Origin: Botryllus schlosseri
Taxonomy: Eukaryota
Assembly (NCBI GenBank): GCA_051294905.1
Contig: CM119371.1
Location: 38,380,001 to 38,444,000 of the forward strand
Direction: 5' to 3'
DNA length: 64,000 nt
Positions 3,121 through 64,000 of the stretch are shown here, piece after piece. How positions within the stretch are numbered: position 1 is the stretch's first letter; every line of letters starts with the position of its first letter. The notes below the pieces were generated by a model. That model saw nothing but the letters and a program-made list of their open reading frames with translations, did no database searches and was not told where the DNA came from. Both the position numbers and the translations under genes were made by a program.

Positions 3121-4338
3121 TAGGGATGGTGTGAACCTCTGAAAGGTTCAGGTTCGTGTGAACGCGAACCTTTTTGAAAGGTTCTGTGTGAACACGAACG
3201 TGAACCTCATGACGTCCCGTGACGTCATATTGCTAATTCCAACCCTATCTTTCAATGAAGTGATAGCCTATGTCACGGTGGTTTATTTCGTTATGGCTCA
3301 TCCTTTGCCACCTCGAGCACTTTGCGGTGCACGTGCATTTATATGTGGAGTGACGCGATGGAGGTCGTCTGTTTTGATGTTGTTGTAATACTGGTTTGCT
3401 GATATTTGTTGTTCTATTATCTTATCAGGGTTTCGAGAGATTTTTTAACGTCATCAAATAATATATTCATCCATTTGGTGTTCTTGTTTGGTGTCAGTTG
3501 GGAAACAGAAGAAAGCCAGCTTAATACAATCGTCGACATTTTTGGAGACGACAGCCTATATTAATGTACGTATTGTACATGTACGCACACGATACCTAGC
3601 GACGACTCGGGTCACATAATCCCATAATGCGGAAGTATATATTGGCGTTTTAAACGTCGCTGAATGTATCAACTGAGGCAATCAAATGATATATTACTTC
3701 CATAAAATCAATATTATCCGTCGCTTTGCCAACAACTTCGACGAGGACTTACCAGGGAATATAAGAAACACCTTAACGGCCGGACAATGTATTCGGCGTC
3801 GGAGTATTGCTACATTGATTTTGAGCAGAGTGTAAAACAGGGTTTCTATGCTTGCTACCGATATTATCCCATTAATAAGTTATACAGCAATAGCTAAAAC
3901 CCCCCATAAACATATGAAGTCAAGATTGATTGGTTGAATAAGCATCATTCGCTGACTACTATAAGTGTATTTCGCTCGTGACGTTGTGTGATTGCGAGTC
4001 GAGCTCACAGCAGAGAGTCGCTAAATATTCACAATTGGAAAGCTGAATATTTGGAGCAAACTTTTGTAACAAAGCAAGTAAAATCTTTGAGACTGCCAAG
4101 GTGCATATTCGTTTTGTGTTGAATTTTTCTGCTGCCAGCGCCATGCATAGAGGGACTGGCCCGCAGTTGAAATGCAATAAATTCGTACCAAAGATGTCAT
4201 AATAAAGTAAAAATTGTAATATATTAAAAAAGTTCACAGTGCAGAACCTATCAAGGTACTGTTGTGGACGCGAACCTCTGAATTTCCGAGGTTCACACAC
4301 AGAACGCGAACGTGAACCTCACGTTCACACCATCCCTA
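3121..4338 (+). mobile_element. Non-autonomous hAT element (MITE)
   Basis: TIR TAGGGATGGTGTGAAC, subterminal GAAC/GTTC repeats, perfect 8-bp TSD GTAAATAG. Confidence 0.9.
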
Positions 4339-5721
4339 GTAAATAGATGGTTTTCGTGTTTAGTGTTTCAATTGCGTACACTTGATATAACATTATTTTT
4401 CAGGGGTACCCCATTCACGAAGATAAATCCCAACGGGTACGCACACAAAACGTAAGGTAAACCTTTCGCTTACTAGTCATACGCTAATATTTACATTTCA
4501 AAACATAACACTGGTAAACAAAATGAAAAAAAAATTGGCAGAACATCTAGGAGCCGTTTCTGGGATTTTCAAGGTTGCTGATTAAGAATATCATATTATA
4601 GTTTTGCAATATTGGCTCTAGAAAAGAAGATATTTTTACCCCTAAAAAGAATAAAATCACTGTATTTACCCTGGAATATTTCACTTGGTAGGAAGTAAAT
4701 CTTTGAATTTTCTACTTTTATACTGCGCATAAATATGCAATTGACTATGATGAACACTCATGTCGTTCTCAGTTATTCCATCAATTTTAACATGACCTGA
4801 TAGGAGAACTTTGTTTGGAAAAGCAGTTTGTCAAGCCTAAAAATTGTACTCTTGCACAATGGAAATATATTTTCTCCTGAACCAATTGGTCATTCTACCA
4901 AGATGAAAGAGGAGTATAAAGTTATCAAGTTTGTACCTGGAAAGCTGAACTAAAAGACTTATATGCGCTTCCTCTCTTTTCACTTGTAAATGGATAATTT
5001 TCCGTAAAGCCAACAAAGTGGGTATACCTAATATCCATATCAAACGAGAAGCTTAAATCTGGAATCTTTGATGTTACACAGGTTCGAATACGGACTAAGG
5101 ATTACAATATCATATTAAGAAAGGTGCTCACTGCATGGAATTCTTCTAGGATGTGGGAAAGAAATTTTTTGGAAGATCACAAAGCACCTAACTACAAACA
5201 GTTGGTCTTAGAATTGGTATCTGCATATGGAAACCTTGGAGCAAACATGAGTATTAAATATCTTTTCCTGTTCATTCATTTCGATATATTTTCTGATAAT
5301 ATTGTTGATTAGAGGGAATAGAAAGGGGAAAGGTTCCTCCAATGTATCAAAACAACAAGAGAAGATATCAGCGAAGATGCGACAAACATATTATGGCAGA
5401 CTACTGCGGTAACCCTTCGAAAAACTGCACAAAATAGCTTACAACCGAAAATAGTACAATAACCAATTTTGCTTTAAGATAAGTTATTGATATTATATTC
5501 CAACTTATCATTTTGAATTTAAAATAGGGGTTAAAACTGATTCCGTTAATGCAACGTTATTTGAGTTTTTAGGTAAATACTTATATACATGATTGAAGTT
5601 CATTTATTTATTTATATCCGTGAAAGTCTCTAATTATGATAAATCGAATACCCTGAAATATAATTCTGTTGATGTATTTTGATTTAAAACAGTCTTCAGC
5701 GTGTCAAAATAACAAGTAGAT

Positions 5722-8260: not shown

Positions 8261-8734
8261 AAGTAGATTGAATCTCTGATCTTTATAGTACGACTAAGCC
8301 GATTTTTTATTTAGCCCATACAGCGAAAATATAAGATCTTAGTCAAAATTGCCCCATGGATTATCTCCAAAAATATAGCCAATTTGAAAAAACTAAAGTC
8401 ATATTCGGAATCAGTGCCTTTGAGAATGAGGACCCCCTAAACCACTCTTACTTTGCCCGCCTAAAACTATGCGTTGACCAGTGTAATTTTACTGAAATGG
8501 CAGATCTTGACGCAACTTCATGAGTAATGTGTACAGTACACTATTTACAATTCAGTTTTGGGATTGTAAATTCACATGCCTGCATTTTATAACAGTTTGA
8601 CTTTGTGGGTTCGCTAATCCCATACGGTTACGAAGGTCTCTTGCCACTGAGATCCGCTTATCATCCGATTCACTTTTCAGTTTTCTATTCGCTTGGGGAT
8701 TAAATCAACGTCATTGGTTCTGTACTCAACCGAG

Positions 8735-9906
8735 ATGCTATTCGTTGCGAGTTTTTACTTTCTTTTGGCCCCAATCGTCGCTGAAGGTTAGTGTGACATA
8801 TGAATCCTTCGATGAAGTCTTCTTTTACAATAGCTCCTTCATTTCAGTCACGCCGAATGGGCGGATACGCAGACATGTATTGGTAAGTCTCCTTGTGTGA
8901 GCGAAGATAAGTCAACTTTCGAATGTGATTTAAAATTTTCGATGTGTTACTTCAGTACTGGCCTGCTCCTATGTACAGGGCGTTCCCAAGAATTATTCAG
9001 GTGTATTATCCAACACCTGTTCGTAAACGACAGAGCGGCGTTAATCGGATCGTACGTTCGTATCTGTGGGCGCAAGCGCTCCGCGGTGAGTAGACACTCG
9101 AACTTCAGGCTGATGATTCGGGCAAGGCTTATGTAGCCATTCATTTTATTGTTCAGAATGTCTTGAATTGACGGAGAAAATAAAATTAGGATATATCTCA
9201 CATCCATACGGCTATCTAGAGTCCAGTTACATTTTGCGCAGGTCTGCTTTCTCCAGCGACGGCTACGGAAGAGACGACCCAAGCGTCAGCGACGACGACA
9301 ACAACTACCTTTACCACAACCACTGAATCGCCATTTCCGGTTTGTATCAGCCTTGGAAAACTACCTAATTTTATTGTTCCACAGACTAATTAAAGAGAAA
9401 TGCCGATAGTTCTAATCTAGATGGTGAAATGACGCTATGCTCCAATTTCAATTCCAATCTAATTTCCGGTTGTCCTAAAATACTACCGGAGAGCGGCATA
9501 TAGTGCGAAAAGAGCCAGGCTTGGTGTATAGACACTTCTAGTTCACAAGTTCATGAGAATGTAATTGGATTTGGGTTGAACAGGACTTGATTTCTTTCAA
9601 ATTGAGAAATTTTTGTATACGCTCTAATTCTAATATATTTTGGAAAATCTTAAATTCTCGAATTGTCCAACATTCGAAGACGCGATTCTGTTTGATTTCA
9701 CGACAGCATATCCTCAAACGGTATGTTCAAAATCTGAAAAGACGCTCCGATGTCGCAGGAAGCGTTTCGAGATTGGGCGGAGTACAAAGGATGCCACTAT
9801 CAGATCGGAAAGGGGCAGCTCTCATTTGAGGACGCTTTTGTGACATGTCTCGGACTATAGGTGCCTCACTGGCTCATAAGAACGTCAGGACAGTGGATGA
9901 TTGTCA
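8735..9906 (+). pseudogene. Secreted propeptide / Thr-rich stalk / C-type lectin domain gene, copy A (frameshifted, 3' exons not found)
   Basis: Exons 8735-8786 (MLFVASFYFLLAPIVAE), 8848-8882, 8956-9085, 9242-9339 (Thr-rich), 9759-9906 (EAFRDWAEYKGCHYQIGKGQLSFEDAFVTCLGL/GASLAH, CTLD N-terminal pattern). A 2-nt insertion creates TAG at 9858. Confidence 0.68.
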
Positions 9907-12473: not shown

Positions 12474-13651
12474 TGACGATCAACGTCGGTTCTGACGTTT
12501 TTATGGGCAAGTGTGGCACCTAGTCCGGAACATGCCGTACCACCTTCATCAACTGAAGCCATTTCCTCTCCGACCTCAAAACGGCATCCTTTGTACTCCG
12601 CCCAATCTTGATACTCTGCCTGCGACATCGGAACGTTTTGTGAGATTTCGAGCCTGCGCTTTGAGGCCGTGCTATTTGGAAATTAGACAGACTCGTGACT
12701 TCAAGTCACTGACTTGAAATGTTCATTCTACAAATCACAGTGGGACAACTCGAGAATTTCTGACTTTCTAAAATCGACGAAAATTTGAATAAGAAAATCC
12801 GCACAAACTTTGAAATGTAACCAAGTCATGTTCATATCAAATCAGAGCTCATTTCATGCACTTGAAAATTGCAAATATCTCTGACCCATGCCAGACTCGT
12901 TTTCATTATGTTGCTCTCTGGAAATTAGATTAGAATTGAAATAAGAGCACATAGCGTCATTTCACAAACTAAATTAAAATTACCGCTATTTCGTTCACGA
13001 TATTGAAACAATTATATTTATACATTTTTCCAAGGCTTCTACAAACCGGAAACGGTGATTCAGTAGTCGTGGTAACGGTCGTCGTTGCTGTCGTCGTCGC
13101 TGGCGCTAGGTTGTATCTTCTGTAGCCTTCGCTGCAGGAAGAAGACCTGCACAAAATGCAACTGGACTCTAGATAGCCGTATGGATGTGAGATATATGTT
13201 AATTGTATTTTCTCTGTCGTTTCACGACATTTTGACGGATAAATTGAATAACTCTATCGCCCTTGCTCGAATCATTAGCCTTAAGTTTGAGTGCCTACTC
13301 ACCGAGGAGCGCTCGCGCCCACAGATACGAACGTACGATCCGGTTCACGCCGCTCTGTCGTCTACGAATAGGTGTTTCATAATATACCTGAGGGATTCTT
13401 GGGATCGCCCGGTACATATGAGTATGCCAGTACTAAAATAACGCATTGAAAGTTTTCAATCACATACGACAGTTGACTTAGCTCCGCTCACACGTGGAGA
13501 CTTACTAATACATGCCTGCGTATCCGCCCATTCGGGGTGACTGAAATGAAAGGGGTATTGTAAAAGATGACAATTGATTGATTCACACGTCACACTCGCC
13601 TTCAACGAAGATAAGCGCCAAAAGAAATACAAAACTCGCAACGAATCGCAT
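12474..13651 (-). pseudogene. Copy B of the same lectin-like gene (inverted paralogue; stop/frameshift in the Thr-rich exon)
   Basis: Exons 13651-13600 (GC donor), 13540-13506, 13432-13303, 13146-13047 (1-nt deletion, TAG at 13108-13106), 12619-12474 (DWAEYKGCRFEVGEEMASVDEGGTACSGLGATLAH). Exons 1-3 are the same sizes as in copy A; exons 4 and 5 differ only by the indels. Confidence 0.68.
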
Positions 13652-13991
13652 CTTGTGCGAATGCAGAACCAAGGACGTTAATTTAATCTCCAAGCGAATA
13701 GAAAACTGAAAAGTGCTTCGGATACTAAACGGCTCTCAGTGGCAAGACACCGGTTCCTCTACATAACCCTTTGAGATTTAGGAACCCACAAAGTCCAACT
13801 TTTATAAAATGTGGGCATGTGACTTTACCATCCCAGAACTAGACCTAACCCCACCAAAACCACACACCCATTTCTTAAGTGTCGAATGCACGTACACAAT
13901 ATTTACTCGCAACGTTTTCAATTTAAATTCTCACTTTGCACTTACGACGTCCTTTATGTTTTACGGCATTTTCACCGACTCATGATGCATC

Positions 13992-15033
13992 TAGGGATGG
14001 TGTGAACGCGAGGTTCACGTTCGCGTTCTGTGTGTGAACCTCGGAAATTTTGAGGTTCGTGTTCACAACAGAACCTTGGTAGGTTCTGCACTGTGAACCT
14101 TTTTAATATATTGCAATTTTTACTTCATTATAACATCTTTGGTTCAAATTTATTGCATTTTAACTGCGGGCCACTCTATGCATGGCACAGGCAGTATAAA
14201 AAAAATCAACACTAAGCGAGCATGCACCTAGACAATATCAAAAATTTTACTTGCATTGTTACAAAAGTTTGCTCGAAATATCCAGCTTTTCGTTCCTGAA
14301 TATTCAGTGACTCATTGCCGTGAGATTAACCCGCAATCACATAACATCGTGAGCGTGCACTGCACGTATATAGTCAGCGAATGCTGCTTATTCAACCAAT
14401 CAATGAGATTGATATCGTTTTCTGAGGGTGCCTTTATTTATGACACTTATGGAAAAATCTAGCAGGCGTACCGGGTCAATCTTGACTTCATATGTATGCT
14501 GCATCATAAAATCCTAAACCGTGCAATTGAGGTGTTGGCTACTGTTGTATAACTTGTTGGTGGGGTAATATTGGTAGCAAGTATAGAAACCCGTTTTACA
14601 CTCTGCTCAATATCCATGTAGCAATACTCAGACGCCGAATACGTTATTCGGTCAGGCCAAGACCGTTAAGGCGTAAGCATATATTCCCTGGCCAGTCCTC
14701 GTCGAAATTGTTGGCAAAGCGACGGAAGATATTGATTTTATGGGATTATTATATCATTTGATTGCCTCAGTTGATACATTTTCCGACGTTTAAAACGTCA
14801 ATATGTACTTCAGCACTGTGCCATTATGTGGCCCGAGTCGTCGCTAGTAGGTATCGTGTACGTACATGTACAATACATTAATATAGGCAATCACTTAATT
14901 GAAATAAAGGGATGAAATTAGGAATATGACGTCACGTGACGTCATGAGGTTCACGTTCGCGTTCACACAGAACCTTTCAAAAAGGTTCGCGTTCACACGA
15001 ACCTGAACCTTTCAGAGGTTCACACCATCCCTA
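13992..15033 (-). mobile_element. Second, inverted and internally deleted copy of the 3121-4338 hAT MITE
   Basis: Same TIRs and internal sequence in reverse orientation. Confidence 0.88.
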
Positions 15034-20935: not shown

Positions 20936-21204
20936 AAGCTAATGAAAGGCTAATGCAGCTAATTAAGCTATTGAAAAGCTATTTAAGCTAATGAAAAGCT
21001 AATTGAGCTAATGAAAAAGTAAGCTAATGAAAAGTAAGCTAATGAAAAGCTAACGAAGCTAATGAAAAGCTAATTAAGCTAATGAAAAAGTAAGCTAATG
21101 AAAAGTAAGCTAATGAAGCTAGTGAAATGCTAATTAAGCTAATGAAAAAGTAAGGTAATGAAAAGTAAGCTAATGAAATCCAATGAAGCTAATGAAAAGC
21201 TAAT
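20936..21204. repeat. Minisatellite of AAGCTAAT(GAA/T) units
   Basis: Directly visible tandem array of roughly 9-17 bp units. Confidence 0.9.
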
Positions 21205-22735: not shown

Positions 22736-23726
22736 CAGTGTTGGGATGACTCGAGTCATGACTTGACTCGAGTCAGACTCGAGTCAACTTTTTCGTATGA
22801 CTTGACTTGACTCGAGTCACTTCGGAAAAATGACTTGACTTGACTTGACTCGGAGGTTCAAAAATGTGCATTGACTCGTGACTCGGAGCAAAATTTACGA
22901 GTCAATTTCAAGTCATCAAGTAAACGGTGTCGAATAAATCACTGTATTTTGTGTATGTTCGGATTGTTCGAGATACGCCGGTGCTGTTTGTGAGAGCAAC
23001 CAGTCATTCACTGAATATACGTTCCTCCATTATTATATCACAAATAAATTGACCTCAAACTAATTGATCACAGCTTACGTTGTCGAAGTAGTAGTAAAAG
23101 ATTAATCTAAATAGCAATATGTCTCTGTTTCTTAGACGGCTCAATGCTTACGTTGCGCAGTGCTCACATTTACCAAGCCTCGTGTATGATTTAAATCAAA
23201 CAAATATAGGTTGCGCGTTTATATTCTTACGGATGTGTAGATGGTTAGTGTAGGCTATTGTACCATATCAATTTGTTTCAACTACTGGAAGCTTCGTATT
23301 AGGTCCTCTATTTTGGCTGATAATAACTGACTTTAGCATGTAGCTATACGGTTACTCACGTATTTTAATAGCGGTTCTACGTGTGCGTGAGGCATACAAC
23401 GTCTTTTTGCATGTATATTTGACTTGATATACGTTATTTGATACAAGATAAATGACCAATTAATCTGTCTTTCTCACAGCTAGCAAAATTTAATGACTTT
23501 GAATCATCACTCATACTTCGAAAATTCAATTTGACTTGAGTTGTGACTTGACTCGTGACTTGACTTGACTTGGCTCGACTTGACTCGAGTCACCTCCAAA
23601 AACCGAGTGACTTGACTTGACTCGAGTCACCTTTGAAAATCGACTGACTTGACTTGACTCGAGTCAAAATCTGCAATGACTCGAGATGACTCGTGACTCG
23701 AAGGTAGTGACTTGATCCCAACACTG
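22736..23726. mobile_element. hAT MITE with subterminal GACTT/GACTCGAGTCA arrays
   Basis: TIR CAGTGTTGGGAT; perfect TSD GATTCCAG. Confidence 0.9.
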
Positions 23727-23880
23727 GATTCCAGCATGTGGATTGCATATAAGGTCAAGGTGCAGGTTGAAATTAGTGTCGCATTATGACGTCACATGTT
23801 CAAACTGGGCACCAACGGGGTTTTGAACAAATGCATTTTCGATATTGCAGCAAACAATACACTCATATTGTTAAATTTAT

Positions 23881-23920
23881 TCCACTGGAAGCTTTTCGAC
23901 TGGCTCTCTTCAGCAGTGAA
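23881..23920 (-). ncRNA. Minimal type-I hammerhead ribozyme, second PLE arm
   Basis: Reverse complement reads ttcactg-CTGAAGA-gagccagtc-GAAA-agct-TC-cagtgga; 7-bp stem I with one G-U pair; AATAAA follows immediately. Confidence 0.85.
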
Positions 23921-24081
23921 CGCCAGTAAATGAGGTTAATCAAGTTCGAAATATAGGAAGAATTTTGTCGTTGTGACGTAATAATGACAAGTACACAAGT
24001 CGCGAACGGCAGTAAACAGCACACGGTTACGGTACAGCACACACAAAATCAGCTGTAAAACAGCCGAATGACAAAACAACA

Positions 24082-25974
24082 CTAATGGAAGATTCCCAGC
24101 GTGTAGAGATGTTCCTTCTGGCGGCAGAGGATCGGCTTTTGCAGCTTTATAATGGTTGATTCAAGGATCTTTAAATGAAAAAGAGAACGACCACGAGCAA
24201 CTATGGAAAACTGATTGATATTGTAATGTTTTGCACACTCTGGGTGTTTCAATAGGTGCTGTCCGATGGCAGAATTACATGCTGTTACTTGGTCATAATC
24301 ACGCATGGTAACTAGGGACTGTGATGATGAAGCAGACATGTCATCACCCTGCGAATTCCTAATTTGGCGTGGGACATGTTGACGAATTCTTTGTTGCAAG
24401 CGTTGAGATGTGCGAACCACATACCGACTGTCACATCGGCACGTATGTTGGTAAATTATGTTACTCTGATCAATCGCAGGAGGCACATCCTTACGTGTTG
24501 CTGGTAGCAAAGACTTCGTAGTAAATATGACACGGGGTTCCACTTGTGGGAAACAATGACTCACGGAGGACTTAATCGATTTTTCAAACCTGTTGCAAGC
24601 TGTGCCTATCCACGGGAGATGCAAATAAACTGGGCACCTTCTCGGTCCAAACGGCTTATCTTTGTGGAAATCTTGTATTTTACGGTCAATACTTACTTTC
24701 ACAATACGCTCAGGATATCCATTGGCAAGGAAAATGGATTTGATAGTATTTATTTCACAATCCAGTTTGTCATTACTGCAAATCATCAGGGCCCTGTGTA
24801 CCAGGGTTCTTATCAAATTGATTTTACGTTTCACAGGGCAAAACGAATCCCATGAAAGATACTGACCACTGAATGTAGTCTTACGGTAGACAGATGCAAC
24901 AAAATTATTGTTCATCTTCTCAACAAAGACATCCAAAAAAGGTATCGAATTGTTATTCTCTTTTTCAACAGTAAACTTCAGAGAAGGGTGAAGGTTATTT
25001 AATTTGGCCAGAAACAAATCACATTGAGCTTCATTATTAAACATGACAAAAGTGTCATCAACATAGCAATAGTACATCAATGGCCGATCGGCACTATCCA
25101 ACAATATCTTTTCATGAAACCCCACAAAGATGTTAGCCAAAATGGAGCTGAGTGGAGAACCCATGGCCAAACCATCTGTCTGTTTGTATATGGTGTTATT
25201 AAAACTAAATTCAACACCGCAAGTCGCCATTCGCATAAGTTTTACGAACATGGATTTGGAAAATGGCGGAGATGGAAGCTCACCACCATAAAATGCATTG
25301 GCGCAGATCTCTATGGTTTCCTCAATAGGGACATTGGTAAAGAGGCTCGATATATCAAAGAAGCTGAGGTACACCTTGGAGGCATCATGATCTATATTAT
25401 TGATAATATTAGCAAACATGAACGAGTCCCGAATGCAGTTGTCATCATAGAGCGCACTCACCGGCTTAAGGAATTCCACCATCCACTTCGTGAGTTTGTG
25501 GTACGCCGATCCAACCATCGATAATATTGGGCGAAGGGGCACGTCTGGCTTGTGGATTTTCGGGAGACCATACATTCGTGGACGGAATGAACCAGTCGGT
25601 CTGACTTCATCATACGTCGCCGATGAAATCTTTCCAGCCCTTTTCAAGGTTTGGAGCGCGCGTTGAATACGCGATTCGATTTTCGCCGTGCTATCATGAT
25701 CGCAAGCTGGACCGATAGTTTGGAATTTCGTTCGATCGCTGAGAATAGTATTCATCTTGGAAATGTAGTCCGACTTGTTCAAAATAACAACCCCGGATCC
25801 TTTATCAGGTTTCGTAATGTGGATGGACGTATTAGTCTTTATTGACCTGATACAACGATAGCAGTCCTTGTTCATCAAAAAATCGCTCTTGTCCATCGGT
25901 GTGCCACAGAATCCATGCGCCAAACTACTTAATTTCACTTTAAGAGCAGCAAGTTTAGCCGAGTACTCCTTAGC
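24082..25974 (-). CDS. Penelope-type reverse transcriptase + GIY-YIG endonuclease (5'-truncated, probably inactive)
   Basis: Motifs DKGSGVVIL, YGLPKIHKPDVPLRPI, DISSLFTNVP, GLAMGSPLS, YVDDTF, PFLD, and IIYQHTC.CDSRYVVRTSQRLQQRIRQH...LE. The frame stays open up to the inversion junction with no ATG start. The endonuclease motif reads YVV here but YVG in the inverted copy. Confidence 0.92.
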   Translation of the reverse strand, partial: AKEYSAKLAALKVKLSSLAHGFCGTPMDKSDFLMNKDCYRCIRSIKTNTSIHITKPDKGSGVVILNKSDYISKMNTILSDRTKFQTIGPACDHDSTAKIESRIQRALQTLKRAGKISSATYDEVRPTGSFRPRMYGLPKIHKPDVPLRPILSMVGSAYHKLTKWMVEFLKPVSALYDDNCIRDSFMFANIINNIDHDASKVYLSFFDISSLFTNVPIEETIEICANAFYGGELPSPPFSKSMFVKLMRMATCGVEFSFNNTIYKQTDGLAMGSPLSSILANIFVGFHEKILLDSADRPLMYYCYVDDTFVMFNNEAQCDLFLAKLNNLHPSLKFTVEKENNNSIPFLDVFVEKMNNNFVASVYRKTTFSGQYLSWDSFCPVKRKINLIRTLVHRALMICSNDKLDCEINTIKSIFLANGYPERIVKVSIDRKIQDFHKDKPFGPRRCPVYLHLPWIGTACNRFEKSIKSSVSHCFPQVEPRVIFTTKSLLPATRKDVPPAIDQSNIIYQHTCRCDSRYVVRTSQRLQQRIRQHVPRQIRNSQGDDMSASSSQSLVTMRDYDQVTACNSAIGQHLLKHPECAKHYNINQFSIVARGRSLFHLKILESTIIKLQKPILCRQKEHLYTLGIFH

Positions 25975-26693
25975 TTACTACGAAGTCTTTGCTACCAGCA
26001 ACACGTAAGGATGTGCTTCCTGCGATTGATCAGAGTAACATAATTTACTAATATACGTGCCGATGTGACAGTCGGTATGTGGGTCGCACATCTCAACGCT
26101 TGCAACAAAGAATTCGTCAACACGTCCCAGCACGTCAAATTAGGAATTCGCAGGGTGATGACATGTCTGCTTCATCATCACTGTCCCTAGTTATCATGCG
26201 TGATTATGACCAAGTAACAGCATGTAATTCTGCCCTCGGACAGCACCTATTGAAACACCCAGAGTGTGCAAAACATTACAATATCAATCAGTTTTCCATA
26301 GTTGCTCGTGGTCGTTCTCTTTTTCATTTAAATGTCCTTGAATCAACGATTATAAAGCTGCAAAAGCCGACCCTCTGCCGCCAGAAGGAACATCTCTACA
26401 CGCTGGGAATCTTCCATTAGTGTTGTTTTGTCATTCGGCTGTTTTACAGCTGATTTTGTGTGTGCTGTACCGTAATCGTGCGCTGATTACTGCCGTTCGC
26501 GACTTGTGTATACTTGTCATTATTACGTCACAATGACAAAATTCTTCCTATATTTCGAACTTGTTAACCTCATTTACTGGCGTTCACTGCTGAAGAGAGC
26601 CAGTCGAAAAGCTTCCAGTGCATGGAATAAATTTAACAATATGAGCGTATTGTTTGCTGCAATATTGAAGTTCTGTACTTCGAAAAGCCTATT
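25975..26693 (+). repeat. Inverted copy of the PLE 3' end (GIY-YIG region + 3' UTR/pLTR + tail)
   Basis: Reverse complement of 24524-23842 with a few indels, plus an extra tail TGAAGTTCTGTACTTCGAAAAGCCTATT. Confidence 0.92.
26585..26620 (+). ncRNA. Minimal type-I hammerhead ribozyme in the PLE pLTR
   Basis: cactg-CTGAAGA-g(agccagt)c-GAAA-agct-TC-cagtg: full catalytic core, stem I cactg/cagtg, 1-bp stem II, palindromic stem III (AAGCTT). Predicted cleavage after C26615. Confidence 0.85.
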
Positions 26694-28323
26694 CAAATGC
26701 ATTTTCAAAAAAAATGTTCGTTTTTTCAAAGATTGCATCGTTATGCCATAATTGTGCAAAATTTCGAAAAATATGTAGTATGGGCCTATACGGACGATGT
26801 GCACCCAATATAGTCGACGTATACGACGTGGTTGGAAACCTCGAAATCGTCATTGGTACAACAGTTACTGCAAGTAGATACAGATAATTGGTACGGAATT
26901 GGTGTTCTGATGATGACCGCCGGCCGTAAAAATGCTGCATACCGATGTAGTCCTGGTTAGAGATATTTTTGTTGATTTTATGACGGAGGTCGGAGGGCAT
27001 TTTCGTCGAAGAAGCCGTATTTACCCTATATATATTTTCAATTGTCAATTTCAATCAACTTTGACGTCACAATTGAAGGTTCATGACGTCGTGGCTAGAA
27101 AGCAAAAACTGTTTTAAACAAGGTTCATGTTTTAGTCATTTTTGCGATAGCTCTGCACCATTTTGACGAATGAAATCTTCATAGGTACGGCATGAAATAG
27201 CTCCAGTCGCCACTGCTTTGAAAGTGACCACTACCGATTCTATGAGCATGCGTCCACTCGGATAAAACCTACCTTTTGAAAATACGTCTTCGAGCACTTT
27301 TCAGGACATTCATTCGTTACTTCCTCTTGAAGTACATTTGCGGCGATGGAGCCACATGCAAAAGTACCGCGTGCGAAAATGTTGTTTTGCATGACGTCGC
27401 ATTCTGAAATGTCGGGCGATCTCATGTTGACACATTTTTCCTACGGTACAAATATCATTCTTTAATTTCCGAACGTTATAAATAAAAAATGTTACATTTT
27501 TCAATGACAGTTCTTTCGTGGTCATGCGTGTTGGTCCGGACATGCATCTGCTGCGAAAATAACACACTTGTCACATGCATGCATGTTCTTGGTGTCAATA
27601 GATTATTATTATCAAGCTACTTTTCGCGTAAGGTACACTTTTTCGGTTGTAATGACACCGAGCGCATTGATGCTATTTTAGCAGATATTTTCACGAATTT
27701 CGGGTTTGTGTGAACGGCGTGGAACACTCTCTAATTACCGTTTCAGTTTATGCCAATAAACATTCCCATTTTGACTTAGACAACAGATTTATCGAGAGTC
27801 AGCTCACAGGCGCACGTTCTCATAACAAACGGACGCATTTCGTGACCATCTTGACGCATAATTACACGATCATACAACCGTTTACTTCTCAAATCTATCT
27901 CAAGTCACATCATGTAGCAGTCTATATTGCATATACACTGTCGTGGTGCTGTCGATTTTTAGATGTAACCGTCGTATCTGTGTATAATGTATACAGAAAG
28001 ATTTTGTTTTGAGATATTAAATTTAGGGCAAGATTTACCCGAAATGTGCAAATATGAATCAACATTGAACACTTGCTCTCGATGGCACGGTTTCGTTTTC
28101 AAATTGTCATGACTTCTGTTATATAAGCGTTGCATCTGAAGCATATGCGTTTAAAAAAGAAATGTTCAGAATCCAAAACGTTTTGCTTCAATGAAGTTAT
28201 CGACAACAACCACAACAGACATGCCACAAATCTTATTTGACTTTCAAAGTAGGTGTAACGAAGCACATCTATACTTTATAGCGTATACAGGTAAGCTTTA
28301 CCAAACCGCAATACTTGATAAGT

Positions 28324-29717
28324 CAGTGGTTCTTAGCCGGGGGTCCGCGAATCATTTGCAGAGAGTCCGCGAAACCTCCAAATTTACGAACTGACTGATA
28401 AGCTAATGTTTATTTTGTTTTAAATTACAGAAATCACGACGCACTTTCGATTCATAATTGCGAAAACTTCAGGACTCACTTAAACAGAATGGCCTTCTGA
28501 AATGAAATACTCCACTGTGTAAACTCAATAGTCAACAGCCCACTTATACTAACATATTGCTGTTTAGCGATGTTTTGTTGGGGTTTTGGAAAAGGAATTG
28601 TTGGCAGAGATACATTTTCTTCTTCGATATACATGACCGCTATTCAAGAATAACTTCAAGATGAGCTGCTATATGGTAATTACCAGGCTGGATGCTATAT
28701 TGGTCCCTGTATGTTGCGAATTGCGATCTTAGCCAAAAGTGTCGTCGAAAGCGTTACGAGTTATTATGACATTCGCCGCCACCAATACTTGTGGAAATGG
28801 ATATCTGGCACTAGTTCTTATCAAATCAACGGCGCGGATTTTCAAGACACGGCACCGTATTTCAAGAAATGCAGCTACAGAATTCGTTATGGAATCATGA
28901 AAGTCATCCCAGTTTCTATTAATTAGTATGATGTTATTTTCAAGAAAAGTAATTTTGCTGTTTTTTATCACTAGCCTGCAGTTAATATTTGCACAAGATA
29001 GATGTCGGTTGCATGATAAAAGGGGTAAATTTGAACTAAGACTTGTGGTACGCGGGGGTCCCTGGCAGTACACAGAGGGTCCTCGAAGACAATAAGGTTG
29101 AGAACCATTGGTCTACTGATAGAAACATATTGCTGTTTAGAGATGTTTTGTTGGGGTTTTGAAAACAAATTATTTTCAAAAATCTATTTTCTCCAGTCAC
29201 ATATATACATCACCACTATTTCAGAATAGCTTCAAGGATAGCGGTGCTAGATATAAATGACTATAATGGTCGTTATACTGCAATAAAAAAATTATTTCGC
29301 AATTTTGGTGCGTGCATATATGTTGCGTTTCGATCATACCCAAATGTGTCGTCGGAAGCATTAAACGCGTTACTATTACATTCGCCTCGGCCTATATTTG
29401 CGAAAAAGTATTTTCCGCACTCGCTCATCTCAAATCGACGGAGCATATTTTGAAGGCACGACTGCGTATTTCAGGAAATGCAACTACAGAACTCGCTTTG
29501 AAATAAATAAAAAAAAATTAAAAAGTTTTTCAAACTTTTACATTAATAGTATGGCGTTATTTTCAAGAAAAACCCTTTTGTTGCTGTTTATCACTAGCCT
29601 ACGGTTACACAAGGCAGATGACGGTGGCAAGATAATTTAGTGAAATTTGAATGAAGACTGGAGGGTCCGTGACGGTCCAAAGGAGGTCTGCGAAAACAAA
29701 AAGGTTGAGAGCCATTG
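28324..29717 (+). mobile_element. Buster-type hAT derivative with tandemly duplicated 3' half
   Basis: CAGTGGTTCT start; two 3' ends (GGTTGAGAACCATTG at 29110, GGTTGAGAGCCATTG at 29717); relic FASAYICEKVFSALAHLKS. Confidence 0.75.
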
Positions 29718-44400: not shown

Positions 44401-47400
44401 GGCACTGTTCTAGGTCACATGGGTCGTTTCGACTTTTTATTATGTTTTCATTTAATACAATATTGTGGCGTCTCGTTGTATGCCTAATAAATTTTTGGAC
44501 TAAATTGAACTGAGCTGAAAACAAGTCCGGTTTGAATATTGGCTGTTCTGATAACATCGGTCGTAGGCTGCTCGGTTGTAACTCCTGGTCACTGCGACCC
44601 TTTCCTACCTTTTCGTTCTATAACAATATTGTGGTGTTTTAAAATCATGGGACATTCAACAACCTGAGCTAATTAGGTATTATATTACTATACATTATAC
44701 GAGACACGTTTAGAGCCGGGTCGGTTGTTGTTTGTGCGGAGTACAAAGATGCAGTGCGACACGGATTTGACCGCAGTGAAGCCACCGTATGACTTTCACG
44801 AGAAATTCCAAGTGCCAGTCAACAGATAGGCCTCTATTCGCAAAATTGTAACACGTGCTACTTTTAGGAAATTATTTTCTGGTATAGAATAAAAGAGAGA
44901 TCTAAAATTTATTGAATTTCGAACTCATATACTTCCGTCGAGTAAAGGCCACTATTTCAGCACGAATTGAGGCTTTTTGCTTGCATTGCGAGACTTTCCA
45001 GGGTGCGTCGGACGCTGCTAATCAGTGACTCATTCGATTTGACCTTATGGAGCAGACAGTTATGCACTGATATGACGGTTACGAGTGACTGAGTTACAGG
45101 CGATAGCTACGCCCACCGCACGCCCCAGAGGCTATCGATGGTCTGCTCTTTAATAATACTCTTCGGACTGTCTTTGTTAGGCGAACCATTCCGTAGATTG
45201 ACAACATCCATATTCTATCGATGTTCTACGCTCATTTCCATGCAATTATCAGTTATTCTAGGATATGGTTGATGGTCTTATCATCTTTCCAACAGCTAAA
45301 GTTTACCAACATATGACTGGGCCATAATGGGCTGAAAATTATGAGACACACTACGTGATACGAGAACACAGCATTTTTGATGGCCATTTTCAGTATACCA
45401 ATCTTGCGAAGGAGAAATCCTCATTATTTCTATTTCAAATATTATTGTTGGGTAAACCGGATATCCTTTGTTTCCACATCATGTCTTTGCATGTAAGTGT
45501 AAAACTAGACATGGGACAGTTGTGACACAATAGCATATGGCACTACATCATGTCATGTCATACTAGAAGTAGTTCGGTTATGATCTGATTAGGGTTTATA
45601 TTATATTCGAGATGTGGTTAGGATTTGAGAAACGGCTTATTCCAGGGTTAGGGATGCGGTTTGGATTCATTTATGGGTTATTTAGTCACATATCGAACTG
45701 TAGGATGCTAAGCTGTCGTTTTGCAACACCCGTCATTGCGGTCACAAAATTATTTTTTTTTGACATTTTTCGACCAAAATCAAAATAGTATATACTTCCT
45801 CCAAAACTGCTTTGTATGTTGTTTACTGATTCCGAGGAGAACATTCCATATCCTTCGCCGTGTTACAGACAGTATAGTAAAAGCGTGGGAAATTTGAAGC
45901 AAATTCTTATGCACCGAGTATTTGGACATCCTAGATTTTGCTGACGGGCAAATTTTGCTGCGAAAACAGACTTTCTATCCATAAAATTCGATCATGAAGA
46001 TTCCCGACTGTTGTTCGCAGGTTACGTTGCAAAAACATGGAGTCATTCGTGTACACTCGGTCACACCCCGAATCGTTAAATGTCGAGTCCATAAGAAAAA
46101 TGTGAAGCTTTGTCTGCGCAATAAAAACACCAACCATATGGTAAATGTGTTTCGCGTACCGGATGCAAAATTTGAAGGAAAGTTCTAATTTTTCAATCCC
46201 CTGTTCATTCTTGAACCCGTATGCCATAGCCATATATTTCGTCAATATTGAAAAAGCAATACGGCAGGACATATCTGGTATCGCGTAATGAAAAAATCAT
46301 ATCAAGCTTAGATTTCGTAGTCATACAATATATAATATGGTAGAGAATATTGGTCACATACATATTGTGAATTTACTATTTTTACATTACTATGTGTTTG
46401 AGCCAATTGTTCGTGGACGCAATACGTGTCCATCTTCAAGATCAGTGTTATTGGACTATCCTGAAATATTTGAAGTAATGATTTAGTTCGATCCAACAGC
46501 AGTCAAATCCAATCTTCCCAGAAACTATTCTAACTTATTGCGCATCATTGCCTGTTCAGTTTTTATCAATGGAAATTCAGGAGATATCGACTTACGCTTC
46601 TATTCTATTTATACATCACTTGACACACGATATAATTGGATCCGTTAGTAATCAGAAATTCTAAATGACAGCATTCAGTTTTTGTAATTCCGTTCCTATC
46701 TGCACTCGAAATTGCTGGACTATGACAGGTCAATTACGCTTACTGACACATGACACTTCCTTTTCATAGCTTGTTCTTTTTTACTCTCTTTTGACATTTT
46801 TAATACAGTGCGCATGCCTCTTATTTACGTGATATAGCCCATGGGTCACCAACACACGGCCCGCGCCCATGTTAGAGCACACAGCGTTGTACAGCGTTGC
46901 ACAGATTTAAAAGCATGGTAGCTAAACTGTGTGGCCTTTTTCGTTTCGATATTGCATCTTGCAGCTTGTGGTCTAGCTAGACGATATTTGAAAAGTGGTC
47001 CGCCACCTTTTTGTTGGCGACCCCTGCTAGCCCAAGGTGGGTGCCTAATTAAAATACTACCAAAAGTGCTTCATGAATGAATAATTTTTTGAAGAGCTTC
47101 TTGGAGGTACACAATATGAATATACTATTCAAGGAATTTTTTGTAACAGGTGTATCTTAGATTTGCAAGTAGTGACATATTCACCAAAATTCAAACTCCA
47201 CTACAAGTCAAAGTAGTCATTTATTTGCACCAGACTGTCAAGTAAACGCACTTTACGTAGTGTCGAAAATAAGTAATGTTGTGTGCCTAACACAAGTAGC
47301 TACAAAGACTACTACAAATCGTTTGAATTCATCCTTATCTTTTCATTTTATTGTAATCTTTTGGTGTTTTGAACTGATAAAATTATAACTAAACCGAATT

Positions 47401-49490: not shown

Positions 49491-49602
49491 CTGCTGACGA
49501 TTGCGTCTGACGAGTGTCCGCCGAAAATACTCGGCTTTATTTCAATATGAATATATTAATTAAATGTATATTAAAGTTCTGTACCTACGAGAAAGCTCTA
49601 CA
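49491..49602 (+). repeat. Degenerate copy of the short hammerhead element family
   Basis: gctgacgattgcgtCTGACGAgtgtccgccGAAAatacTCggc...tttcaatatgaatata...aagttctgtacc; core intact but stems mutated. Confidence 0.75.
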
Positions 49603-50515: not shown

Positions 50516-50517
50516 AA

Positions 50518-50930
50518 TTCAATATAGACATGAACCCGAATATATTCGACTGACACTCGCCAGGGGTAATTTTCAACAACTAGTAGAGATCACAAATTTT
50601 AAAAGTCGGTACAATTATGTTCACAGCACCATTTGATCAATACATTCACTGAGATGTGAGAACCTCTAACCAGCTGCCCTGATACTAGAGTGAAGTTAGG
50701 CTAATGTCTTTTGGATCTAAAAGCACGGTCTTATTGCGAGTCTTCCATACTATTGCGCATTTTGGCAATTCAGGAGTCACCGTATGAATTCAATAATAAC
50801 GAACCCGAATCTACTAATTGCTGACGACTACCCCAGACGAGTATGAGCCGAAAATATGCGGGCTCGTCTCAATATGAATATACTATTCAATGCTGGTATA
50901 TTGAAGTTCTGTGCCTCTAAGAAGCTCTTC
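50518..50930. repeat. Head-to-head pair of degenerate hammerhead-element copies (about 50518-50586 minus; 50811-50930 plus)
   Basis: Both begin ctacta(g/a)ttg(c/t)tga; the plus copy carries the tail ttgaagttctgtgcctctaagaagctcttc. Confidence 0.72.
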
Positions 50931-52399: not shown

Positions 52400-52485
52400 T
52401 TAGTTGCTGACGACTAACACCAACGTGTGTAAGCCGAATATTTTCGGGTTTATTTCATCAATAATATACTATTCAACTGTATAAT
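52400..52485 (+). repeat. Degenerate copy of the short hammerhead element family
   Basis: tagttgctgacgact...aagccgaatattttcgggtttatttc...tatactattcaa. Confidence 0.65.
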
Positions 52486-57890: not shown

Positions 57891-58324
57891 AGGACATCGT
57901 CGGTCAAAATATTGTTTTACTTCAAATATCCATATTTCCTGGATTTGAAATCATGATTTCAAAGGTTTCGTCAAAACCGGTATTATAGTTTTGCTTCACC
58001 GTACTCAATTTCTCAGTCAATATATTTGAAGATTGTGTGTAATTTGCACATCACGGAGATAACCGATTTCGCGCCGACCGGAAAAGCTATCCATTCATTC
58101 ATTTTTTGCATAGTATATTCAATTTATTCATATTGAAAGTAACCCGAATATTCTCATTCGTGTGTCTTCCGGTCGACTTCTTTTTATCAAAATCAGCCAA
58201 CCGAGTTTGCATTGACAGAAGAGTTTATGTATAATATAATATTGAGCTTAAGCGATCTGTTCGACTGGATAATTAAAATTATCTTGCCAAATCTCATGTT
58301 CATTCATTCTTTTGTTTCGCACAA

Positions 58325-58556: not shown

Positions 58557-58762
58557 TTCTTTCATTCGTGTTCCTTCTTAAGGTCGACTTTATGAAAATT
58601 TAAATCAGCCAACCTAGTTTTTACCGACGAAATGAATTTATGTATAATCTAATATTGAGCACAAGCGATCTTTACACGACTCCATGATTCGAATTTTCAT
58701 GCCAACGACGTCATATTTAGTGATACCATTGTTGATATAAAATGTTCTTTTAACATTAGTGC

Positions 58763-58830
58763 TGGTCGCTGACGATTAACCCAGGCCATTGTCAACCGAA
58801 AGTATTCTGCATTATTTCAATATGACTATA
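58763..58830 (+). repeat. Highly degenerate copy of the short hammerhead element family
   Basis: gctgacgattaaccc...gtcaaccgaaagtattc...tttcaatatgactata. Confidence 0.55.
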
Positions 58831-60783
58831 TTATTCGATTTTACATCGCAGAAAGAGCGGAAGGTGATTTTCATATTGATTCGGAAAACGCGTATCATAG
58901 CTATGATATTTCATTTTCGACGGCAACAGGAAAACCAGCTATATACACCGATAAACTGCTTCGAAGCACTTGACACCGCATAACCTGACCGCGTGATTCC
59001 GATGCTTGGAGATTCACTCGACTATATTCGCAGTTACTATAATAATTCCCCGATATAACTTTGCGGTAAATCCGGTCAATCTGCGGTCACATATCGCCGC
59101 ACGTCAACCGCCTATCATGATTCATATTATTTATGTTACCATCGGGAAATTACTCTGTATATAGATACCGCGGACTAACTGCGCTATCTCAAGTGGTTAG
59201 ATTCCACTTCCCGGTGTCTTGATATAGGAAGATAAATATACATTTTAGGGTATGATTGGACTCTCGTAGGATAAATTCAATCAAATTGCACGCATTCAGT
59301 AAAATTGCATTCCTTTAGACATCGAGGAATGCAGAAGCTATCGCAACTATGAATTCAATTCCAATGCCTTTCTAGTTCCAGGCAATCAACACGTGTTTTA
59401 AAGTGTGGAGATGTGTCACACCGCATATTGTACACTCGTGATGGTCCAGCCGGCTGTTAAATTCAAACTAATATGCCGTTAGGTAGTTTCCAAGAGTTGA
59501 TGAGCTTTTGCTGCTCTAGGATTGCAAGGTATCGCCATCGATAAGTTGAATTCAAATTGATCAGAGTGGAACGAATTCATTGATTAGTTAGATTGCATCT
59601 CGCCTTAAAATACTTATGAAATGGATATATATATATATATATTATATATACGATAGAGAATGATCCATGAGGACCTGCGATTGGTCCTTCAGATAGAGCA
59701 TCAAACAAATTGATAGTTTTCACGGAAAATGTTGCAGATTACAGATCGGCGCGAAGGCTCGAGGTTAAAATTATCGCAATGACCTGATAAACCGATTTCA
59801 TGATTGAATTGGAATATTCCTATTCTGATATTTATCAGTCCGTGATTACAATAATATAATTTGATGTGTCTCCTCTGCTTCATTAGGGACTCTTTTTAGA
59901 TAGAATGCCTCTGATATTTTTGCTGAAGTGTGTCGTTAGTTCATCAAAGCAAGTTCTAACCCAGAACTGGGGACACGTCACGTAGACCACGACTGGACTA
60001 TGATTGAGGGTCAACTTTAGTATGATAGCTGCTATTAGAGCACAAGAAGCCGTTAGCGGGACTCTGGATATTATCGTACAAAGTTCATTTGTTGAAGCAA
60101 TCAAACCAATATCGAAATTGCGAAATCTCATTCACCGAGATTATAAGTATGTTTGTTGAAGCAATCCCTATAATTTGAATAACCGACATTTGACAGGCTT
60201 GATGTGGCCGGCGTGTAGTGACAATGACTTTGATAACCTTTACTCCCAAACGCAACGGCTCTTCGAGTATTTATAGCTTATCGCGATGCCGTTTCAACCT
60301 TATACAAATATTTGAATTCTGAATTTAACTCTACAATTACGCTCATTTACAAAGGTTTAAGGTTGGACGCTCTCTTTCCTCGCAGCTTCACGCGTGGCGC
60401 TTCAACTAATCTGTAGCCATCCATTCAAACGTTTGTAACTAATTCAATATGCGGACATGACATGCAACTTGGTCTCAGAGGTTTTAAAATGAACTTCCAT
60501 TGTTTCAAAACTCATTTAGAATTTGCATTCCACTCCCATCACGGTGTCTAATCTTCAGAACAACGATTAGGTGCCATACCAACTTTATATAACAGATGTT
60601 GTTTAATAATGATAGTAGGATGACAGATAATAGTAGTGACGCTTATCTCTCCTAAAGGACTGGTGTACCACGGTCTGTATTGCCTTTGTAATTAGTAACA
60701 ATGCGAAGCAGCAAGTGCGTGTGCATTCTTCATGTTAATATTATTATTGTCAAGTGTAGTAAAATCGTGATACTGGTGCCTAT

Positions 60784-61153: not shown

Positions 61154-62452
61154 GACCTATCACATCATATTGCTTTTGTGCGCCATGTCTGTAGGAGTTA
61201 TGATGGGGAATACAAATCAAAAAATGTATATACAAATTTTAGTCTTAATAATATGTTCTTTCACAATAAATATACGTAACTAGATTGTACGACATATTAA
61301 TCCCAACGATAGACGCGTACATATATATATACTCTACATTTTTTTGCTTATACCCATTAACTTGCGATTTCTGAAAGGAGAGGAAAGTAAAGGACTGAAA
61401 TTTGAGGGTCAGTGGTACAAGTCGGCGCTCTGACGTCAATTTCTGCGACGAATAGGGTTATTAATAACGTTCGCATAACCGCGCGGCTACCGTTTTGCAC
61501 TGGCCGTGTATTTGAACACGATATGAAGTCCCGGATCAAACGACGAATATGGATAATTACGGTGGCGAATTCATCACACATCTTCGTAATTGCAACACAA
61601 AATAAAATGAGTGTGGGAACATCGTGTTCCCTCAGCTGACCTTCCCGTGCTTTCGTGGAACGAACGCTTTCTCACAATTAAACAAACTTGATCCTCGCAT
61701 GAACGGAGTGCTTGGCTAATTAAAATCGATTTATTGGAACACATTTATTCACAATTAACACGAAATGGCAAACGTGGGACATCGGACCATTTAGCACGGT
61801 CGACGGAGCTCCATGCGGCATACAAGCCAAATATAATTGACTACAAGGCGGTGTCTTCAAGCTCTCATTTCGAGTGCTTACAGTAGATCTGCACATCCCA
61901 GAAATATGTTCAGTAACGAGATAAGGTCCCTACACGCTTAACGGAAAGAATGTGTATTCACATCCAAAGGGCCGAAAGGGTGATAGACGACAACAGAACC
62001 TCAGAAGTATATAGCGGTCAAAAATCCCACGTGCCTATGTGGACACTTTTCTAATTCCTACGTGCGAGCATAATTGGATTAAAATGTTGCACTCGATGTA
62101 TACCACGGTATAAGTCGGAGGTTGGGTCTGGTTTCGAGCAACATGGGTATATATTAACACCTGTATATCCGGGGTGGTACACGGGGGGATATGCATGCAC
62201 ACTCTTACCGTACTCAAATGTTTCAGTTTTCCCTTCAAGTTTTTAGGGCAAAAATTCCTACATCTTTACGTTCTCAATTCTGTTAAACGGAAAGTAATTT
62301 TGGAACAAGTTTGCATCACTTATATACGTACGTAGTTATAACAACAGAGTCAGATATCCCAACATCCCCGTAAAACAATATATTGTCAGAAGAGCTTCTT
62401 GGAGGTACAGAACTTCAATATACAATTAAATAGTATATTCATATTGAAATGA

Positions 62453-62486
62453 ACCAGAATATTTTCGGCTGACACTCGTCAGGGGT
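62453..62486 (-). ncRNA. Hammerhead ribozyme, inverted arm (one stem I mismatch)
   Basis: accc-CTGACGA-gtgtcagcc-GAAA-atat-TC-tggt; G>T at the first stem I pair. Confidence 0.65.
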
Positions 62487-62506
62487 AATACTAGTTGCTG
62501 ACGATT

Positions 62507-62540
62507 ACCCCTGACGAGTGTCAGCCGAAAATATTCGGGT
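62507..62540 (+). ncRNA. Minimal type-I hammerhead ribozyme
   Basis: accc-CTGACGA-g(tgtcagc)c-GAAA-atat-TC-gggt; palindromic stem III AATATT. Confidence 0.82.
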
Positions 62541-64000
62541 TCATTTCAATATGAATATACTATTTAATTGAATATATTGTCAGCAATCATTATGGATTAA
62601 TCGCGAAGATCCATCATCAATTTCGAGAGCAAGCACTTCCCAATAATTTTTTAAAGTATGCGACTCCCCGGCCACATCTACTTTTCAAAATTACGTACTT
62701 GGGTACTGCTTAGACCTGTAAATATCTACTTCAAGACTAAATGTAGTTTTGTCATATGTCGAAAATACCTACTTCAGTTGAAATTGAGTAGTAAATTTTC
62801 GGCAATACATCTATCACTACTTCGACCACCCATGATATCCCATTACTACTTCCAATTTCTTGTTTTTGTTCACAGGATACCGAGAGATATCAACAAATAC
62901 TTTCCGTTCGTAATAATACGCAACCCACAAGTGACACGAAGACTGTGAACAGCGGATAATCAAGTTACGCACAAAGTTGACTTTATGATTAAGGCGACAA
63001 GCTTTCGCAAATTCTCGGCAGCAGGCGTCAATTGCATTCCGGCTTATCTGACACTTGAACAAATATGCGGCGTATTATAATAACTCTTTGATAATGGCCA
63101 CGTATGACGCTCAACATACTTTCCACAAGTGTTTGAAATTGGGAGATGATTCTGAATTTTCCTGTTTTTAAAATATTGTAAATCCGTATTGACGTCACTG
63201 AATTGTTTCGTCGTGATGAATTCGGGCTACAATTTCCGATATCCCGAATCTCGAACACTTCCGGATAATACAAAATGTGAGGAATCTAGAAATTAAAAAT
63301 GTTATCATCAATTCCGTTGCGGTCATTGCCCCGCAAAATTCGATGAATTCTACTCATCTCATCATTGCTGGAGTATTTGGTTGTAATAAGCTTCGATGCG
63401 AACAGATAACACATGCTCGTCCTCGCCACCCGGTAGACAGCAGGAATTATAAGACAACGCATCGCTTTATCAAGTAGGCCGGACCACGACTGTGGTACGG
63501 CGTTTAGCCTGCAACGCGACAGCTGCCGATCAAGTCAAATACAAACAGATCGTACTGGATAAATGCTAGTCTGTTCTTCAGATTACCAGACCGCGATCTG
63601 CTTTATCCATATCCTATACGGACATAATGCCATTTCATTTGTAACGCTTTTTGTGTTACTTTGTGTTCGGTGTGCGTGCCTCTCATATTTAAATTTTATA
63701 TGCCAAGGTGGGTGTTTAATTGGAATACTACTTCAAGTTTTTCAGACACATTCCTATATTTTCATTTTGTCGTCATCTTCTAGTACTTCGAAATGATGAA
63801 ATTGTTCATAAACTGAACTGATATTAAAACATGATGACCAGATCGATTTTCGGGTGTGCATTCTTCCCTGCTTTTTCCAACGGTATTATGAATTCGCGTG
63901 GAAATCATTCCAGACTTGCATTTCAAGCTCAAATACGTTACGGGTTGAACTGCTATATTTGTGATTAGTATTTTATCAGACAGACCAAGGCAATGGCATG

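Follow-up and report, generated by a model that had tools for sequence, protein, structure and literature searches.

A 181-bp head-to-head double-hammerhead insertion in Botryllus schlosseri is probably a very short Penelope-like insertion

Insertions of canonical endonuclease-positive (EN+) Penelope-like elements (PLEs), such as Pen2a_Av, are truncated at the 5′ end and joined to an adjacent inverted, truncated, head-to-head copy; a tail of 30–40 nt that overlaps the ORF start lies at one end, and a target-site duplication (TSD) surrounds the whole unit. In the available excerpts of the reports on Adineta PLEs, the inverted pseudo-LTR (pLTR) and one-sided tail are accompanied by a TSD of 8–10 bp (PMC3846280; PMC8557442). 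Dual minimal hammerheads on opposite strands, 100–700 bp apart, have been regarded as probably truncated PLEs in the accessible part of an earlier survey (Cervera and De la Pena 2014, PMC4209133). The metazoan non-LTR retrozymes, as the excerpted accounts present them, are short, non-coding and related to PLE pseudo-LTRs, and carry type-I hammerheads on the same strand of head-to-tail tandem units that give rise to circular RNAs (PMC7229834; bioRxiv 10.64898/2026.07.22.740005). In Poseidon of Anolis (PAc), the hammerhead lies beside the ORF start, according to the available portion of its description (Frangieh et al. 2024, PMC11167929).

The 181-bp insertion considered here is the very short extreme of this already published class of Penelope insertion, not a new ribozyme parasite. 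We put at roughly 0.9 the probability that it represents the 3′ end of an autonomous Penelope-like family, present twice in head-to-head orientation, likely the product of one aborted insertion and likely inert now. It occupies positions 62390–62570 of the window, by which we mean the whole stretch of B. schlosseri DNA that was analysed (64,000 nucleotides; GCA_051294905.1, contig CM119371.1, 38,380,001 to 38,444,000, forward strand). A scan of the window sequence places it within an exact 13-bp TSD (62377–62389 and 62571–62583), the sole match of at least 8 bp among the end positions scanned. The tail-bearing arm (62390–62489, minus strand) corresponds to the last 100 nt of the family that we call B (positions −100 to −1), and the 33-nt tail (62390–62422, minus strand) is confined to it. 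The tail-less arm (62489–62570, plus strand) corresponds to family-B positions −115 to −34, and base 62489 at the junction is common to both arms, a one-base overlap. The preliminary description of this locus had given the length, the perfect TSD, the head-to-head arms and the one-sided tail, all of which the sequence confirms. It had also foreseen a hairpin of about 65 bp on read-through, and that figure is correct since, of a 72-nt inverted repeat (62418–62489 and 62504–62575, 97% complementary, spacer 14 nt), 67 bp lie within the element, with one mismatch; the hairpin itself is predicted.

The layout is that of Pen2a_Av in the excerpts cited above, except that both arms are shorter than 120 nt and no ORF is left (PMC3846280; PMC8557442). 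The TSD is also longer, mostly 12–13 bp in family B against 8–10 bp in the Adineta examples given in the same excerpts. In tandem family-B copies the 33-nt tail is in frame with the beginning of the RT-endonuclease ORF that follows it; in the second copy of one tandem locus, L148, a single open frame covers the hammerhead and the tail and continues into that ORF. An ATG at 62551–62553 (plus strand) is the likely family start codon in tandem copies, to judge from the L148 second copy, which is open from that Met; in the 181-bp element it leads to a dead end. This likely ATG stands 15 nt downstream of the cut site, whereas in PAc, in the part of the report available, the start codon lies inside the hammerhead (PMC11167929).

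The identity of the parent emerges from the element's own genome. Among the 40 candidates scored of the 713 returned by a search with the 181-bp element were short look-alikes and copies that match one arm only, and on their 5′ side the one-arm copies run on into a frame that shares about 52% identity with the C-terminal portion of the Penelope protein encoded in the window. Twenty loci taken around that frame contain open RT-containing frames of up to 800 aa and the tandem pLTR-ORF-pLTR copy L148. The 181 bp are the reverse complement of the last 100 nt of L148 (98% identical) plus L148 positions −115 to −34 (100% over 82 nt); the L148 3′ end accounts for all of the element, which has no private sequence. 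Pfam RVT_1 scored above its cut-off in both parent proteins tested (778 and 800 aa), a PDB search returned weak RT matches only, and the Pfam search of these proteins gave no endonuclease or GIY-YIG match. By motif, the family-B frames end in a stretch with C-x-C and two His, which we take to be GIY-YIG-like; inspection by eye of the family-B protein revealed no extra Zn-finger-like linker between RT and endonuclease, a linker whose absence would be expected of the Penelope/Poseidon clade (PMC8557442). The first copy in L148 has a frameshift near its start, and none of the copies read gave an intact parent ORF over its full length. On sequence evidence, the parent is an abundant, autonomous, protein-coding family, sister to a second family (A) present in the window.

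The preliminary description had proposed a non-coding ribozyme retroelement that PLE machinery moves in trans; the arms are instead the 3′ end of a coding Penelope family. It had itself allowed that, if longer copies ran 5′ into an endonuclease and RT frame, the locus would be just a severely truncated PLE, and this is the case, because the 181 bp are entirely L148 sequence and longer copies enter the ORF. Its attribution of the insertion to Penelope-like machinery holds. Tandem copies that form pseudo-LTRs are present in family B (L148, L060–L062). Multi-unit insertions that mix tandem and head-to-head copies (L048/L049, L060–L062, L148) are mutually 99% identical, which shows that family B is recently active. 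The window also holds eight older, degraded family-B fragments, 74–94% identical to the reference copy, at 2771–2979, 47092–47132, 49492–49599, 50517–50589, 50810–50929, 52401–52483, 58125–58155 and 58687–58846.

Family A is represented in the window by a 5′-truncated insertion with an inverted 3′ arm (23841–26693, minus strand), which contains a 630-aa RT frame (24082–25974) and hammerheads at 26590 (plus) and 23913 (minus). The earlier statement that this 2.85-kb element shares the layout and TSD length of the short one is borne out: it has a 13-bp TSD (23828–23840 and 26694–26706), and its arms are arranged head to head, with the tail confined to one of them. It belongs to a sister family and is not the parent. 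As a candidate for that role it was rejected, its DNA similarity being patchy and the identity of its protein to the 800-aa family-B protein just 57%. Its inverted arm repeats the last ~147 codons at 92% identity, with a 4-nt difference between the arms just after hammerhead stem I. Another family-A fragment (L002:378–707) is separated by about 800 bp from the copy that most resembles the 181-bp element.

A 28-nt tail motif of family B has 2,025 exact matches in the element's own genome and none in a control. We surveyed the first 100 matches listed in position order, all on contig C1; an exact tail match was required, and the sample includes linked copies that share a host repeat or represent the two ends of a single insertion, so that counts over the 100 loci are not fully independent. 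Fixed 5′ ends, which the preliminary description had put forward for checking, do not exist across the family: tail arms in this sample range from 32 to 1,899 nt. Fifteen of the 100 matches are one 92-nt fragment carried as a passenger in another repeat; of the 85 that remain, 42 extend beyond the stop codon at −199 into the ORF, and 29 are no longer than 130 nt. Truncation points are bunched between −95 and −131 in 15 of 85, a post hoc observation. An adjacent inverted arm that reaches the 3′ end is found at 50 loci, an internal inverted piece at 20 (the 15 passengers included) and no inverted piece at 30. Most of the 50 inverted arms (42) end at −29 to −37, that is, 29–37 nt short of the end, as the tail-less arm of the 181-bp element does. 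A greedy search gave TSDs of 12–13 bp in 25 of the 50 and 10–14 bp in 37. Both arms are 130 nt or shorter at seven loci of the sample, and the longer arm may be either one, tail-bearing or tail-less. The 15 passengers (L037, L038, L041, L045, L046, L053, L070, L073, L092, L093, L096, L102, L104, L113 and L122) each combine the 92-nt tail with about 158 nt of inverted ORF and have a clipped hammerhead core. Their host is a dispersed repeat of at least 1.28 kb, its copies 84–90% identical, with weak relatives at 28733–29717 of the window.

We suggest that the 181-bp element would have arisen as follows. The RT-endonuclease of an autonomous element would cut AT-rich DNA with a stagger of about 13 nt, and each cut end would prime cDNA synthesis on the same source RNA, or on RNAs of one source locus. 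One cDNA would start at the tail end (−1) and the other at an internal start near −33; both would stop early, at −100 and −115, the upstream edge of the hammerhead. The cDNA ends would then be joined at the one-base overlap, and gap filling would yield the TSD, leaving the hammerheads as passengers from the parent's pseudo-LTR. In the available portion of one study, a Poseidon protein cuts AT-rich DNA on both strands in vitro and extends them, and reverse transcription starts at two sites bracketing the tail (PMC11167929). Family B may behave like PAc in its two RT starts, its AT-rich targets and its priming from both strands; we infer the two-priming step from this one in vitro study of another family.

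The two arms of an insertion resemble each other closely. Among 19 pairs from 17 insertions (two counted twice), divergence between arms within an insertion was 0.28% (52 of 18,637), versus 0.91% between insertions, and family-polymorphic differences between arms came to one site across the 17 insertions. Since within-insertion divergence is low, both arms derive from a single RNA or a single source locus, unless they were homogenised later; gene conversion could have produced such near-identity. A joining of unrelated RNAs through hammerhead dimers was considered and is unsupported, given that single polymorphic difference.

Shared alleles between arms would also be expected if one nucleic acid strand had snapped back and primed itself, with no second priming. 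Self-priming on an antisense template is the route preferred by Arkhipova et al. and proposed for the Adineta elements, in the excerpt available (PMC3846280), and the 14-nt loop at the junction would suit it. The unpaired segment (−115 to −101), however, belongs to the tail-less arm, where tail-primed snap-back would place it on the tail arm, so a simple one-cDNA snap-back fits poorly. A cDNA that started at −33 would lack a template for the tail, and in the 100-locus sample the longer arm is either one. We therefore regard snap-back, which would leave the origin of the sequence unchanged, as an unlikely but serious alternative to priming at both cut ends.

The insertion looks young and polymorphic. 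In a contig from run X7 (same species label, other study), the flanks are joined by 17 unaligned letters, where arithmetic on the contig alignments predicts 16 for an empty site and 210 for a filled one; in a contig from run X5 (other species label, other study) they are joined by 44, where 47 and 241 are predicted. Both samples appear to lack the insert, as expected from the earlier suggestion of a recent insertion that might be absent from other haplotypes. Run X1, possibly the source of the assembly, has both junctions with zero differences. Clean, young and polymorphic, the 181-bp insert is of modest use as evidence that a single event with a single source produces both arms, the one-sided tail and a TSD of 12–13 bp, and such an origin constrains the unsolved mechanism of Penelope insertion.

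The exact arm junction occurs five times in the genome within one mismatch, and this raises the question of whether the short head-to-head form replicates by itself. These copies would represent an incipient, non-autonomous hairpin parasite if a short fold-back insertion were transcribed and the Penelope enzyme then copied its 181-nt fold-back RNA again in one piece, together with its minimal hammerhead, whose one-pair stem II would be held by a 6-bp pseudoknot conserved in two families. Five dispersed copies with a common junction are more than expected if truncation points were uniform, and the 181-bp element and L152 differ at a single base (99% identical, with separate TSDs), so one may have been copied from the other. 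There are precedents, in the accessible parts of the reports concerned: non-autonomous PLE derivatives exist, namely MRC1 (PMC8557442) and retrozymes, and trans mobilisation of a host gene lying between pLTRs has been reported (PMC3846280). Even so, we consider such a parasite very improbable. Five copies stand against 2,025 exact tails, and they have different flanks and two tail variants, two copies with one and two with the other, rather than the fixed structure and diagnostic changes that define a non-autonomous PLE family. Exact matches to the second tail variant number 238, and its arms range from 59 to 1,541 nt in the 12 loci examined; since this variant is so broadly truncated, the same junction likely arose more than once. 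The closest pair, the 181-bp element and L152, share no private change, and RNA reads on the unique flanks were absent but for a trace in one run, from animals that may carry an empty or divergent allele.

The hammerheads themselves are compatible with the origin that we favour, as remnants of a parental 3′ end. A motif scan found one hammerhead core per arm, the two lying on opposite strands, and after each core a GAA, a 6-mer palindrome and TC. The plus-strand motif (62507–62540) is intact: it has its core at 62511–62517, GAA at 62527–62529, the palindrome that forms stem III at 62530–62535, a predicted cut after C62536, a 4-bp stem I (62507–62510 with 62537–62540) and a single G-C pair closing stem II. 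The core boxes, the G10.1-C11.1 pair, the short stem I and the palindromic stem III of a minimal PLE type-I hammerhead are thus all present. The same conserved core, G10.1-C11.1 pair, stem I of 4–5 bp and palindromic stem III characterise the PLE hammerheads in the part of Cervera and De la Pena's report available to us (PMC4209133); in that part the Schistosoma stem II is a helix of 7–8 bp, where family B has one pair and the predicted pseudoknot, and the 181-bp element differs further in lacking an extra base between 9 and 10.1 and in having cores only about 30 bp apart. The minus-strand motif (62453–62489, core starting at 62482) retains its core but is clipped at its 5′ side, with the upstream pseudoknot strand truncated away, and has a U for G directly after the cut site (62456), a C·U mismatch. 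Of the earlier claim of a minimal type-I hammerhead in each arm, then, the motifs are real and the one in the tail-bearing arm is damaged. Rfam gave no hammerhead match at E≤1 and a sub-threshold miRNA-hairpin model only, an absence that would be expected for minimal motifs. Of the 88 tail arms that cover the position directly after the cut site, none has a T there (82 have G, 5 have A and 1 has a gap), and arms mismatch at that site in 7 of 45, near the rate of neighbouring sites. A G/T arm difference there had been considered as an RT error at a ligated circle junction; it was seen in the first BLAST-ranked loci, is absent from the position-ordered sample and reflects search bias. A supposed second core at 62498 was also discarded, since no stem I or II fits it and it is better read as the pseudoknot strand.

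Could the element nevertheless act as a functional double-hammerhead unit that cleaves itself and circularises in the manner of a retrozyme? Both cores are intact, and the plus arm has the full family motif with its palindromic stem III; the element is also, like a retrozyme, short and non-coding. It is, unlike the retrozymes of the excerpts cited above, head-to-head, with hammerheads on opposite strands, and wholly a piece of a coding element (PMC7229834; bioRxiv 10.64898/2026.07.22.740005); neither head-to-tail units nor same-strand hammerheads are found in it. Because the motifs lie on opposite strands, one transcript carries one hammerhead and its antisense, and dimer pairing within one transcript is excluded. 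The read-through RNA is predicted to form a hairpin of −114.6 kcal/mol (about −112 to −115 for both strands), with an unpaired probability of 0.00–0.02 across the core, and the hammerheads would thus be buried in 67–72 bp of duplex. The lowest-energy fold predicted for an isolated arm is not a hammerhead, its stem III duplex is worth just −0.2 kcal/mol, and the motif in the minus arm is damaged. Cleavage by PLE minimal hammerheads is weak even when they form dimers. Autonomous ribozyme function of this kind seems to us the least probable of the readings considered. In four ordinary raw RNA runs, of which 3–6% of each was read, the reads on the element derive from other copies, with almost none on the flanks, and no pile-up of read ends occurs at the cut site; this RNA result is weak because those animals may lack the insert. 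No indexed dataset carrying the element is recorded as RNA.

Two other observations are better leads than the 181-bp element itself, the first being the pseudoknot of loop II. In family B (window 62497–62525), a strand upstream of stem I (62497–62502, plus strand) could form 6 bp with loop II (62520–62525), and in family A (26576–26605) 6-mers at the same spacing are complementary in different letters. The pair is intact in 93 of 128 family-B arms, with no covariation inside the family, and the pseudoknot is a prediction founded on two families. Among the papers listed by a literature search, none is clearly on this pseudoknot. The family-B catalytic core is itself able to pair with loop II, and that pairing may represent an off-state.

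The second lead is a single-copy fold-back family-B insertion (L050:4112–4499, the same locus as L171, at about G000:C1 9340466–9340853) with an ADAR-like signature in the assembly. Its arm span has 48 T>C changes, versus 0–3 in 18 sister copies and the reference; 47 of the 85 T of the paired arms are affected and 1 of the 35 of the unpaired middle, against 4 changes in 903 flanking bases, and 5′ G neighbours of the changed sites are mildly depleted (p=0.05). The pattern resembles what ADAR leaves on hairpin RNA, and the cluster could also be an assembly artefact. The host is a repeat of about 1.3 kb with terminal inverted repeats and an 8-bp TSD (L171–L190; L050, L083, L124, L125) that carries one fold-back Penelope insertion as a passenger; its flank was matched in 40 of 40 scored candidates, out of 2,725 at first look. 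We presume this host to be hAT-like. Since it looks like a DNA transposon, the cluster would require some way for edited RNA to be turned back into DNA, perhaps RNA-templated repair, if it is not an assembly artefact.

Elsewhere in the window, two nested pairs of long inverted repeats (3121–4339 with 13991–15033, and 8554–9857 with 12521–13840; 73–94% complementary) span about 12 kb and constitute an old, large palindromic element. Minisatellite-like arrays with units of about 10 and 20 nt, together with short repeats of 5-nt period, occupy 20936–21204 and 22794–23693.
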